Part shown: positions 4,031-9,348 of the stretch, piece after piece | Position numbering within the stretch: position 1 is the first letter of the stretch | Layout: every line of letters begins with the position of its first letter | Assembly: GCA_010093815.1 (NCBI GenBank) | Contig: ML996569.1 | DNA: 64,000 bases | Reading direction: 5' to 3' (one strand) | DNA from: Pseudovirgaria hyperparasitica | Taxonomy: Eukaryota | Made by a program: the position numbers and the translations under genes | The notes under the pieces: model-generated | Databases searched by the model: none | What the model saw: only the letters and a program-made list of their open reading frames with translations | What the model was told of the DNA's origin: nothing

Positions 4031-5024
4031 TCAAAGGACTGGTTCCCCGCTAGTGCCATACATAGGGTCATGAGGTGTGTTTCGGACACGAAGTCCTGGG
4101 GCCGTTGGCTCCAACCAGCTTCCATCGTTGTCGTCTCCTCCAACATCTGACCTTGGTTCGGTGGAAGCGGATGGAAATCCCCAGACTGGGGCTCGGTTTC
4201 CATTCTGTCCCTCACCAGAGACGTTACCGTGATCATCGTTTTCTTCGCTACCGTTGTCGATGAACTGCTGTGTCACCAACTTGGTGATCGCCCGTTGGCT
4301 GGCCATACAAGCCGTCAAAACCGCCTTTTCGGCATCAGGCTTGTGATCGTGGTATCGGCAAAGGCCAGGAAGACCAAAGATGCTCCCACCAGCTCTATTC
4401 GCGTCGCTAAGGGCAGCATCCATGAAGAACTCTGGTGGTGCGCGGGAGAGTTCGGCTGCTAGGCGCTCCGTGTTATCGTGGGCAGGTCTGAAGAACAGGT
4501 GGAAGCTGTCTGCAAACAACTTGCGCACAGGGGAGTCCTTGGGCAGTCTGTCGTAGGCAACCTTGATTGTGCTATATTCTGGGATAATGTAGCGTTGGTT
4601 AATGGTCCTGTAAAGAAAGTACAAGGCATCAAAGCGCAGCTTTGGGATCTCGAAATGGGTCGCAAAGATGTAGAGCTCCAGTTTAGCCTCAAGAGAGTCA
4701 GTATCGATCTGTTGGAGTGTTCCCGGGCGGTCGTATAGCCAGTCAACAAAGTTCTCGACGGTTGCTGACTGCCATTCATTGGTGTCGAAAACCAATTTAT
4801 TCAATGCAACTTCACGGTACGAGCCATTGAACTGCTGGTCGAAAGTAGTCGAGACCTGGGCAAGCAGGTAGAGATGCACAGAACATTCAGTTTTCTCGCG
4901 ACCGTGAATCAAACCAACAGTACCACCACGTGTGAGGTATCTATATGATGTAAATCCTGCCACGACGAACACTAAAGAGAAAGACTTACCTGAACCTCGT
5001 CCCTCGCTGAAACTCAGGATCCAT
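4031..5024 (-). CDS. BTB/POZ-like domain protein (accessory type)
   Basis: VHLYLLAQVSTTF...F.GSY.E, FVDWLY, LELYIFATHFEIPKL and AYDRLPKDSPVRKLF match the pattern of fungal BTB-domain proteins. Exon 1 MDPEFQRGTRFR (5024-4990), intron 4941-4989 (GTAAGT...TAG). Confidence 0.75.
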
Positions 5025-6127
5025 CTTAGCTTACACGAGGAGCCCTTTGAATGAAAGTATACACCGCTTTAGAATTGTCCTTCTGCGAGGTAGGATGAAG
5101 GATGTAGACGAAAGAAACTGCGGTGAAGGTAGCACAGCTTTTAAAGCTGTAGAAACACGCTAGCAGTCGCAATTTGCTGGATTGAGATCTGCACGGTCAA
5201 GTGAACAAGACTGCCATACCGCGTTGTCCTTACAACAACAGTGCAGAGCAGGTGACGCGTCGTTCCAAGCTTTCGAGACAAACATTATCAGTGGAATCTC
5301 TGCTCATCGTAGATTATAGTCCTGTTCGGTAGGCATACTCATAGATCTATACTTCAATAAAGGTCGAGATTGGGTGCGGTGTGTTTTGATGACTGAATAG
5401 AGCTTATATGCCTATATTGCACAGGCCTACCAGAACATAATTGCCTTCAGCTACTAATGAAACCTTTTCAAGGAGACAGACAAAGAACAAAGATCACCAG
5501 ACCTAAGAAACCCCTTTATTTGTGGTACGGGGGAACTTGGTCAGTTGTCTTCGTAGACGAGAATATGTAGCTTGCTTGATATGATACTTGAGAGACGAAA
5601 AAAGGCGGAAAGTAGAAGTTCACGCCTGATCTTACGCTGAAAGAGAGCCTAAATATACCATAAACTATAACCTCGAGTAGAAAAGCAGTATTTGACGAAG
5701 AAAAAAGACAACTCCGTTTACGACAAGTGACTGGACATTCGTCTGGGGACACTTCGCAGCCTGACATGTGCCTGAAATGTGCCTAGACTAATGTCCTAGT
5801 ACTGTATGGAGATATGCCCGTGTAAGTGTATGAAAACATACGCAGCCATAACGTTCCCACCATGTCAGCATAATATGTATAAGACTAGCTTGTATACTCC
5901 ATTATGGAAGCAGCAACCCGCCACCTTCGCAGCGAATGGAAACACTCTGCGTTTCCTAGGCTGAATTCGGTCTTTTTAACATCATATACCTGATGGTGGA
6001 GCCTTCCACTGGTGCTGGGCCAATCAAAATCATCCTGGATATGAAGGATTCCATGGCGCGCTGTTGCCTGCACACTAAAATGTCCACTCTTCTGACTCAC
6101 ACCACCTACTGCCTAGAATCCATAGCA

Positions 6128-6135
6128 TATATAAA
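6128..6135 (+). promoter_or_regulatory. TATA box of the U2-like snRNA gene
   Basis: TATATAAA about 40 bp upstream of the predicted U2 5' end. Confidence 0.65.
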
Positions 6136-6168
6136 CCAACACTCCCTCAGTCCAGATGTTGTTTTCCC

Positions 6169-6363
6169 ATCGCTCTCTTGCCATTCAGGCTTAGATCAAG
6201 TGTAGTATCTGTTCTTGACAAGAGTAATATCTTGTTATTCCGTCCATAGAGTCGGTCAAACATTACTCCTAATTTTTTTTCTTGAGCTTCGACGGTGGTG
6301 GGCTTGCTCGCCACTGTCGGGGTATTGTGTCGCTCGTACCACTGCACTGTCGCGGGCTGACGC
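6169..6363 (+). ncRNA. U2: U2 spliceosomal snRNA (divergent variant)
   Basis: Contains the invariant U2 core GGCTTAGATCAAGTGTAGTATCTGTTCTT (branch-point-pairing GTAGTA at 6202-6207). Stem IIa 6217-6236, IIc partner ATTACTC ~6262-6268, U-rich Sm-like site 6271-6280, 16-bp stem III with CTTG tetraloop 6287-6322, stem IV with ACTGCAC loop 6327-6363. About 195 nt, the expected U2 size. Confidence 0.93.
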
Positions 6364-6653
6364 TATTACTTGAGTTGTTTCTTTCATCAGTTTATCGGCC
6401 AAAGTGCTGATGACTGGGGAAGGATGTTTTCGCATAGACGACGGAGTCACATAGCCTGAAGGCTGAACGTCAAGCTATCGTTACCGGAAAATGACGAGCT
6501 AGTGGGTGGAAACATGCTTGACGCCAAAGAAGTAGATTGACATTGCCACTAAGTATTGTGATGCATCGTTGTAAACCCTTGGGATCATACCCTGATATGC
6601 AAACGCCATGATGTTCAGAGATTTCAGGCCCACCCAAGCTGTATAACAGCAAA

Positions 6654-7265
6654 TCATTTCTGCTGATCAATTTTCCAATCGATTCGCTGAGGCGCCTTGA
6701 AATGTATCTTGGGTGGGGAAGTCTTCGTCCATTGAATGCGGCCAAGGTGTCCAGTAAGAGTGATGCGGTCGTAATCGTAATTCGACCCATATGTACTGCT
6801 GAACGAAGTGAACCGTGTGCAAAGAAAGCAGTCACCGCGTAGTTGCTTTACCGTTGTGCGGGAGTCCCCGTTCGCAACATCGTTGGTACAGACCCACGGT
6901 AATTTACTGTGCAATCCCACCTGATCAAGGATGCGTTGCCCATCGATCGAAACCCTGGTTATGTGGCCCATGAAGAGCCCACGATATGGCACGGGGACCT
7001 TGTGCACGAAGCGATAAATGTCCATGTATGTAACCAGATTTTCGAGCTGAAATTTGGGAAAGAAATCTTTGTAGAAGAGGGTAGTAGCTTCTTGATGTAT
7101 TTGTTTGTTCACTCTGAACAGATTGCTGAGTCCCTTCGGTCTGCGCGTAAATTTGAGCTGCTCGTGGACGGATGTGCGCGAATGGAACTCAATGTTGAAC
7201 GAGTATATGTAGATGATGTTTCGTATTTCTCCAGGTAGTCTCAGGAATGGTGGAGTGTCGCTCAT
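6654..7265 (-). CDS. Hypothetical protein with N-terminal F-box-like motif
   Basis: ATG-initiated 203-aa ORF beginning PFLRLPGEIRNIIY and containing LFRVNKQIHQEATTLFY, a common pattern in fungal F-box-like accessory proteins. TATA-like sequence upstream on the minus strand (~7288). Confidence 0.7.
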   Translation of the reverse strand: MSDTPPFLRLPGEIRNIIYIYSFNIEFHSRTSVHEQLKFTRRPKGLSNLFRVNKQIHQEATTLFYKDFFPKFQLENLVTYMDIYRFVHKVPVPYRGLFMGHITRVSIDGQRILDQVGLHSKLPWVCTNDVANGDSRTTVKQLRGDCFLCTRFTSFSSTYGSNYDYDRITLTGHLGRIQWTKTSPPKIHFKAPQRIDWKIDQQK

Positions 7266-9348
7266 TTCGGAAGTTCGCGTCGACTTGATATAATGAACAA
7301 TGTCCTGGTAGAAACTTTAGAATACGCATGCCTTTGAAGGCGGCAACAGTTATATGCCAGGGTCGGTGAATCATGCAGTCAGACATACCTGTCGGCCTCC
7401 AACTTCTGCAGTACATTGCACTTCCTCGGTGCAGCTCATGTTGCCGATTATCGATACAAGTCGTGGATCTTGAGATGATCGATATATACCTATGTATGAT
7501 GCGATTCCGTGATTAGGCTTGCCCATGGTCAATGTCGTTCGTCTTGGCACAGCAGTCTCCGACAGGTTCCGGGGAAGTGGGGATCAATATAAACAATAAG
7601 CGCAGAACTCACTCTTGCGGAAATCATTAGTCCGCGAAGGTTCACGAGACGATGTTATGATTACTCTCGAGAGGTTAGTGGCCGCTCTTCGCAGCCTTAA
7701 ATCCCGCATCCTGACACGCTCACGCATCTCCCTGCGCGAAATTACCCCACCAGGATCTTCTTGAAACTCGTATGAGCATTTCGATTCATGTATGACGAGC
7801 AGTCTCCAGCAATTCAGGCCCAAGGTAGCTATAAATATGCAATGGTTGTATGAAGTCAAGATGACATGGCAGCTTCTCCAAATCCAGCTGTTGCTCAAAT
7901 TCCTCATCTGGCTAAACAGACTGGCTACGCCAACCGTTTGAAGTAAGTGATGACACTACCACAATCAACCATAACCCGAATTGGACTTAATCTAGCTTCT
8001 CTGAGTTCGTCTTATCTCAAGACATCCGACATAAGCCCGGTTTATTTTTAGGAGGATGCGACTGTAATTATCAGGATGATTCTTTCATCATATCACTCTG
8101 TCACCTTCATTATGCTCTCACGCTCACTGGACGTGACCCAAAACGTGCCTACTATCTGGAGTGCCACCATTTTCTTATTATCAGAAGCTCATGCTCACCT
8201 ATCTCCGGCGGCACTTTGCGACGATAGTACAACTCTTCAAAGTTATCATCAGCCCATCTACTATTGAATCCCTGGCACAACTCGTTAGGGTCTACATCAC
8301 TTATCATCTCTCCAGAATGTGATTAGTAACACAGAAGTTTGCTTACCTCCCGCAAGTGATACAATTCTTTCCAGATACCATCATGTTTTGTTGTAGCATA
8401 CGTCCAAGGAATGGAATGCTTGGTGAGCTAGGTATGCAGAATGCTGCAAGAGCCTCGATGTTGCATAGGTTCTGCGCGTACAGGTTGTTAGTAATGCCTC
8501 GAGGAAGGTCTCGAAATATGTTAACCACCATTTCGAATGGGAAGGATTCTGCCTTCGTAATCCCAGAATACTAAAAAGGACTAGACGGCATCGGGGCTTG
8601 CGTGAATGGCTCCTAGATCAGTGCTGGTAGCGCCGCCATTGGTTATATTCACAGAGTCTGATTTGGCCTAGAGAGTGGTCAGCTACTGGTGCCCAAAGCC
8701 ATAGCGTATACAATTATGCTGTCCCGAGTGCAGTCATGGCGAAGGCGAAGTCGACGTGTGCGATGAGAAAAAGATATTGATGTGTAGATAGTTGGCTGTA
8801 TATAACGCTGTTTTGGTCAAAAATACTACCCGTTTATGTATGTATAAGTTTCTAAAGAATGTGGAATGGAGGAGGGCAGTCTTCCTCGCGTGATGGAGTA
8901 TGAAACTACGTTTGCCCTCTCTGGTCTCATTCATAGCTATTGTTATATCAGCTTTATCAGGGTGTGGAACGTTGAACTAGTCAATTAATGGTATGGTGAA
9001 GGAGATATGGAAGCATTACAAGTGTGGCTGGAAATGTAGCATAAACATTCGAGTATTGAGACTTTGAAACTTATGAATGTTCATAAAAATCTTGTTGAGG
9101 AGTCCTGGAGTTTTGATCACTTTGTAGATTACGTTGCGCACATTGCTTGGTACTACGAATATGAACTTTAGGTCAGACAAGTTTTGAGGGTATCTGCTTG
9201 AATATTTTTAACTAGGCCAGGTTGCGGTCACACTCCGTACTCTATGCAAACATCCGCCCTCCAGCCAATGGACGCCGGCATGATAAGTCGATGAACGCCA
9301 GCCATATGTACAACAATATTTCGACAATCGTGTCTCCATTTTAACGCC

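Follow-up and report, generated by a model that had tools for sequence, protein, structure and literature searches.

Fungi are usually regarded as having few, uniform snRNA genes. Variant snRNA genes are known from animals, for instance the snRNA isoforms of Drosophila (PMC4291461) and the human variant snRNAs (PMC8457000). These two papers describe genomes with several genes for one spliceosomal RNA, and variants which may be expressed and enter spliceosomes. For fungal U3, the cited part of Canzler et al. 2017 (PMC5832005) reports no diverged paralogue families. In the yeast Rhodotorula hasegawae, the gene for U2 contains an intron of the mRNA type (Takahashi et al. 1993, cited in PMC5855946). 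A literature search for a divergent U2 paralogue or variant in a fungus did not yield any report. The gene described here is thus of a kind already known, a variant snRNA gene, whose fungal setting would be new. From the animal paralogues it differs by this fungal setting, and its coexistence with other U2 genes and its expression are supported only indirectly. Unlike the Rhodotorula gene it is intronless; an intron of the same type appears to be present in a sister locus of the gene and in two metagenome U2 genes, L030 and L097.

The closest described system is the canonical ascomycete-type U2 (RF00004; represented among our metagenome loci by L084, L063, L025 and L017). Both share the length class of about 190-205 nt, the order of elements (stem I, core, stems IIa and IIb, the IIc partner, Sm site, stem-loops III and IV) and an identical 29-nt core, and the canonical genes have a TATA box about 40-50 nt upstream. 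The differences lie outside of the core. Loop I of the gene studied here reads ATTCA instead of TTTT, stem IIa is rewritten and one pair longer, the IIc register is shifted to the GAGTAAT/ATTACTC type, the Sm run comprises eight uridines followed by C, and the loop of stem-loop IV contains a CC insertion. On RF00004 this U2 reached 87.7 bits, in contrast to 135-160 bits for the canonical ones.

The window, that is the whole stretch of 64,000 nucleotides analysed, was compared with Rfam, and RF00004 was the only family detected across the 64 kb. The match covers positions 6169-6371 on the plus strand and all of the model (1-192 of 192) with 87.7 bits (cut-off 46) and an E-value of 5.3e-16; chance is far too small an explanation for a full-length match of this kind. 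What lies here is a genuine gene for U2 snRNA, intact in structure and unusually divergent. The original prediction had placed the feature at 6128..6363. The feature itself is real, but 6128 is the start of the TATA box, and the RNA begins at 6169 and reaches at least 6371. Its 3'-end may extend to about 6383, where a contig of 197 nt from one of the sequencing runs (X4, see below) ends. All motifs named in the prediction were recovered at the positions given there, namely TATATAAA, the loop ATTCA, GCTTAGATC, GTAGTA, stem IIa, the IIc partner, AAT8C and ACTGCAC. The following elements were assigned:

6128..6135, plus strand: TATA box TATATAAA, preceding the U2 5'-end by 34-41 nt (sequence reading, upstream tally)
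6169..6371, plus strand: complete, intronless gene for U2 snRNA (RF00004, 87.7 bits; fungal model R1, 134 bits)
6169, plus strand: U2 5'-end, ATCGCTCTC (sequence reading)
6174..6195, plus strand: stem-loop I, 3+3 bp, GCC/GGC, with the 5-nt loop ATTCA at 6183-6187 (fold)
6188..6216, plus strand: unchanged 29-nt core with the U2/U6 helix I strand, the branch-site recognition sequence GTAGTA and the following tract (pattern identity, invariant columns)
6189-6197, plus strand: U2/U6 helix I strand, GCTTAGATC (sequence reading)
6202-6207, plus strand: branch-site recognition sequence GTAGTA (sequence reading)
6216..6237, plus strand: stem IIa, 8 bp, rewritten as TGACAAGA/TCTTGTTA, containing GACAAGA/TCTTGTT, with loop GTAATA (fold)
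6240..6255, plus strand: a weak stem IIb of 3+1 pairs, interrupted by a mismatch (fold; non-standard pairs flagged in the Rfam alignment)
6262..6268, plus strand: 3'-strand of stem IIc, ATTACTC (perfect 7-bp complement of GAGTAAT at 6222-6228)
6271..6281, plus strand: Sm-site-like sequence AAT8C (sequence reading, feature tally)
6286..6323, plus strand: stem-loop III, an uninterrupted 17-bp hairpin (-28.2 kcal/mol, z -6.1, none of 200 shuffles as good)
6327..6363, plus strand: stem-loop IV, 11 bp, whose loop holds ACTGCAC at 6341-6347 (fold; 10 of 10 modelled pairs kept)

The whole molecule folded with -64.1 kcal/mol (z -3.4). As the GAGTAAT/ATTACTC complement is intact, the mutually exclusive IIa/IIc pairing is retained.

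To obtain comparators, metagenome contigs were scanned for the 29-nt core in the fungal GGCTTAG spelling, which gave at least 120 loci; the core of the window gene (6188-6216) consists of the same letters as this common pattern. Twenty of 120 loci, 12 of them typical-looking and eight odd-looking as picked by eye, were scored with Rfam, and all 20 were U2 matches. The typical-looking ones reached 135.2-160.5 bits and the odd-looking ones 85.7-125.1 bits (L033 85.7, L055 98.6, L005 108.9, L098 118, L065 125.1). L033 alone fell below the 87.7 bits of the window gene. A fungal model, R1, was trained on 19 sequences including the window gene and run on the window and on 99 of the at least 120 loci (L001-L099), giving 102 matches. 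R1 rows with a length of 180 nt or more were ranked, and those down to and including L034 were taken as the ascomycete-type set (n=52). Despite being a training row, the window gene had the second lowest score in this set (134.0 bits); L034 reached 127.0 bits and the others 136.3-207.5 bits. Among the 81 rows that reached 180 nt, its closest U2 was L017 with an identity of 0.62 (median 0.53), in contrast to nearest-neighbour identities of 0.74-0.95 for most ascomycete-type rows. A close relative of the variant was absent from the at least 120 metagenome loci listed. A variant-specific 28-nt pattern gave no match in prokaryote genome contigs, and a variant-specific 21-nt pattern none in viral contigs. 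One match of the 21-nt pattern in a Bacteroidota MAG lacked any U2 context and was dismissed as chance.

These scores and identities bear out the description of the gene as strongly divergent. Of the four deviations on which the original prediction had relied, those in loop I and stem IIa do stand out as unusual. The context of loop I is GCC-TTTT in 34 and GCC-TATT in seven of the 52 ascomycete-type rows, and the 5'-strand of stem IIa is TTCAG in 44 of them; the window gene differs in both. The other two deviations turned out to be weaker than claimed, since these positions are variable in fungi. Fifteen of the 52 rows had ATTACACT as the loop of stem-loop IV and 11 had ATTGCACT, with many other forms in the remaining rows, as counted with a crude pattern that in some rows, the window gene included, matched an earlier CACT. 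A C following the Sm uridine run was also seen in at least L001, L098 and L034 in the 52-row tally. Both features of the window gene lie within fungal variation.

Low scores are not confined to this genome, and they give some weight to a first alternative, in which the window gene is simply the ordinary main U2 of a divergent lineage and any other core matches in the same DNA are fragments or dead copies. Low-scoring, isolated U2s occur elsewhere (L033, L055, L005, L098 and L065), with identities of 0.55-0.70 to their nearest neighbours. L065 resembles the window gene, as it has a 5-nt loop I, a stem IIa other than TTCAG and a IIc of the GTAAT/ATTAC type. The fully intact structure and core would also be expected of a main U2. 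On the other hand, the window gene has a 5'-end and a stem-loop IV of the kind usual in ascomycetes, and its host is therefore not obviously a remote lineage. The DNA contigs described further below bear more directly on this alternative.

We asked whether the divergent periphery shows selection or decay. Base pairs were counted on a model-based alignment (A2), which replaced an alignment made with MAFFT only (A1) that had misaligned stem-loop III. On A2, 32 of the 34 modelled pairs of the window gene were standard, the range over the 52 ascomycete-type rows being 29-34. With the most frequent pair at each position as reference, 17 pairs were the same, three were changed on one side and still paired, and 12 were changed on both sides and still paired. 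The remaining two were broken, one of them by an alignment shift in stem I. Of the 17 pairs deviating from this reference, 12 hence show double-sided changes; the comparison has little meaning in stem-loop III, where each lineage differs. Over the 102 fungal U2 rows, 93.7% of the cells were paired on A2, compared to 70.1% in shuffles (none of 500 as high), and sliding the partners lowered pairing to 29-45%; the alignment had itself been fitted to this structure, with a model whose 19 training rows include the window gene. In stem IIa of the window gene two pairs are flipped or replaced on both sides and one A-U pair is inserted. The IIc partner has shifted its register together with stem IIa, by which the IIa/IIc alternative is kept. 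The apparent compensation is of a within-family kind, read from a comparison with other fungal U2s rather than with orthologues.

The data affirm the original call of a U2 with an untouched functional core and a rewritten yet paired periphery, which is upheld by the RF00004 match, the folds and the pair counts. With its core intact, its pairs kept and its IIa/IIc alternative preserved, the gene is not decaying. All 29 core bases (6188-6216) are unchanged, while identity to the nearest relatives is roughly one half elsewhere in the molecule, and uniform neutral decay would not leave 29 adjacent bases untouched. The periphery (loop I, stems IIa and IIb, the Sm flank and stem-loops III and IV) has in our opinion probably drifted under selection for pairing. 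The opposite reading is that of a U2 pseudogene or silent duplicate under neutral drift, whose core is identical by chance or through gene conversion. The second lowest R1 score of the 52 ascomycete-type rows and the mismatch weakening stem IIb would fit with it. It is opposed by the 32 of 34 retained pairs with their 12 double changes, by the perfect 17-bp stem-loop III and 7-bp IIc complement and by the unchanged core beside roughly 50% divergence elsewhere. A conversion tract ending right at the edges of the core would moreover be a coincidence. We regard this opposite reading as very improbable.

The upstream region was also compared. A TATA-like motif was located at -62 to -37 in 38 of 51 ascomycete-type U2 upstream regions aligned on the U2 start, most commonly at -41 (six loci) and -53 (five loci). 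The TATA box predicted about 40 bp upstream of the window gene starts at -41 and was confirmed, its spacing being usual for fungal U2 genes according to the 51 upstream regions; this normal spacing, too, speaks against a pseudogene. Farther upstream, 21 of the 51 ascomycete-type promoters contained CTAGCG on either strand. The sequences CTAGCG, CACGTG and CTTGGC, which are frequent upstream of canonical U2 genes, were not found upstream of the window gene, and the lack of the CTAGCG element is a point in favour of the pseudogene.

To see whether further U2 loci exist in the same DNA, we made use of four coded sequencing runs from two studies (X1-X4), which cover the window and none of which is recorded as RNA. 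X1 and X2 belong to one sample, from which the window DNA itself may derive. Because of their even contig depths of about 320 and 275, respectively, both were taken as DNA. In X1 and X2 alike, one contig stops at 6215 and the next one starts at 6187, the kind of overlap that arises when an assembly graph has to branch at a repeated word, and the core 30-mer of the window gene is repeated in the DNA of the organism. Five of the 13 contigs of each DNA run were at least 99% alike to the window, those listed being the two flanking contigs. The summed depth in X1 was 1286.6 at 6192-6232 and 313-322 in the flanks, hence about fourfold, although copy number cannot be equated with the summed depth of contigs and the estimate of loci is rough. 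Since the only unexplained excess depth resides at 6151-6232, the three other perfectly matching contigs most likely lie on the core. Estimated from two depth bins, they span about 6186-6217, and the total corresponds to about four single-copy depths. As a rough inference, this pattern fits two further loci, each with one incoming and one outgoing contig, one contig being shared.

In X2 one contig joins at 6186 after a branch-site-like sequence, a pyrimidine tract and CAG. Judged from these motifs, the sister locus appears to carry an intron ending just before GCTTAGATC. The complete canonical U2 genes L030 and L097 have an intron which ends at that same position. At a threshold of 80%, neither X1 nor X2 showed added depth beyond about 6217, indicating that the other loci differ by more than 20% from the window U2 from stem IIa onward. 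The contigs break exactly at the conserved core, and other U2 loci probably coexist with the window gene; we infer that these are full canonical U2 genes. The original suggestion of a paralogue thereby gained support, if indirect, from the repeated core in the DNA contigs of the organism.

The same contigs count against the window gene being the ordinary main U2, as at least one other locus in this DNA has the core behind an intron-like 3'-end, like L030 and L097, and as the excess depth on the core fits about two further loci. Duplicates consisting of a U2 promoter and a 5'-fragment do exist in other fungi (L053 and L083), and the sister loci might be of this sort, which would leave the window gene as the sole full-length U2. 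On balance we think this first alternative unlikely, though clearly less so than a pseudogene or silent duplicate.

The two remaining runs, X3 and X4, come from one sample of unrecorded type. Their contig depths vary from 8 to 637 where X1 sits near 320, and such uneven depths look like RNA. In X4 a contig of 197 nt corresponds exactly to 6187-6383 with a depth of 76.1, as against 8 and 55 for the contigs next to it. This run is without cover at 6110-6150 and 6397-6478, within gaps at 6070-6186 and 6384-6483 that are not evidence by themselves. X3 yielded a single contig of 2479 nt over the entire region, so that cover of the U2 gene may come from longer transcripts or DNA. As contigs cannot prove the ends or the level of an RNA, the X4 contig, which covers the U2 body alone in a run of unrecorded type, was counted as a weak hint of transcription. 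The discrete contig is to the same small degree an argument against a silent copy, which on its part would agree with none of the runs X1-X4 being recorded as RNA.

The genes around the locus were examined as well. Within 10 kb there are an EamA-family transporter, a sub-threshold 2EXR-like ORF, a class IV aminotransferase and UTP25. JAB/MPN, a cytidylyltransferase-like protein, Alba, GST, an FMN-dependent dehydrogenase and DEP/RGS genes follow farther out. GC content is even across the window (0.45-0.59). The U2 locus is a piece of ordinary core chromosome amid housekeeping genes, and an accessory block with lineage-specific neighbours, as envisaged in the original prediction, was not supported by these neighbours and the even GC content. 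The ORF at 4031-5068, taken there for BTB-like, matched no Pfam family at E<=0.01. For the supposedly F-box-like ORF at 6654-7316, the sole match was the sub-threshold one to 2EXR (22 bits, cut-off 24.8). The UTP25 neighbour is eukaryotic, and the commonest phylum of its best structural cluster is Ascomycota. By the type of the U2 5'-end, the 2EXR match and the UTP25 structural cluster, the host was judged to be ascomycete-like. A short dispersed repeat was additionally noticed at 5726-5806 of the window; six contigs listed per DNA run contained it with roughly 83-92% identity, each at single-copy depth, and two further contigs per DNA run probably do so.

We favour the reading that the window gene is an expressed, divergent U2 paralogue coexisting with other U2 loci, and consider it probable. 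It would be a functional intronless U2 gene of a filamentous ascomycete, driven by a TATA-type promoter of its own, and the coexisting loci would probably number about two and probably be canonical and intron-bearing. With the parts responsible for the chemistry and for reading the branch site unchanged, the RNA should enter spliceosomes and work like ordinary U2. Transcription of this copy, its assembly into an snRNP and any specialised role are what we infer; a variant snRNP put to stage-specific use, as the original prediction suggested, would be a hypothesis. A farther-reaching proposal is that, next to canonical intron-bearing genes, the fungus maintains another U2 which is strongly divergent and yet works, and thereby two kinds of U2 snRNP. 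We put this forward as a doubtful, speculative extension. Were the variant expressed beside a canonical U2, sequence variants of snRNAs would be a feature of fungi as well as of animals. It could then tune the assembly of the U2 snRNP or the stem IIa/IIc switch, and would provide a convenient natural experiment to learn where U2 tolerates change. For now, the gene is a well-formed U2 with an unusual periphery, useful for annotation and of no surprising kind.

A more interesting lead than the variant of the window may come from introns, which many fungal U2 genes were seen to carry. Many ascomycete-type U2 genes from metagenomes contain short GT...AG introns of 51-164 nt with CTAAC-like branch sites inside their first 18 nt. 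Loci with an intron in the 5'-region are L007, L010, L022, L030, L035, L036, L040, L048-L050, L058, L062, L076, L087, L088, L091-L093, L097, L101, L105, L115 and L116. A script identified such introns in 21 of 122 pattern matches at nine positions (after nt 5, 6, 7, 8, 9, 10, 11, 13 and 18); inspection by eye added L035 (after nt 16) and L088. Introns in the loop of stem IIa were recognized by eye in L051, L099 and L117. The 5'-end was uninterrupted in 34 ascomycete-type U2 genes.

An imprecise intron loss may even account for the odd loop I of the window gene. The loop and the next base read ...TTCAG/G and resemble the intron end ...CAG/G of the sister locus. Likewise, loop I of L098 with ...CCAACAG/G (...GCCAACAGG...) matches the intron 3'-end of L097, ...CCCAACAG/G. 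Going by these letters, loop I might be the scar of such an event, or the match might be a coincidence.

Some other arrangements of U2 genes were encountered in the metagenome contigs. The second matches of L053 and L083 are inverted duplicates of the U2 promoter and the first ~55 nt, fused to unrelated GC-rich hairpin sequence, and represent either dead 5'-fragments or chimeric small RNA genes. At the start of the L034 contig a tail, which we take to be sequencing-adapter-like, is joined directly to U2 position ~15, and the 5'-end of this locus is probably an artefact. L091-L093 are three tandem U2 genes within about 3 kb on one contig of 17.5 kb, and L062 and L115 are two U2 genes lying 10 kb apart on one 35-kb contig. 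All of these have an intron after nt 11, and the copies are 81-88% identical, indicating that multi-copy U2 with some divergence is normal in some fungi.
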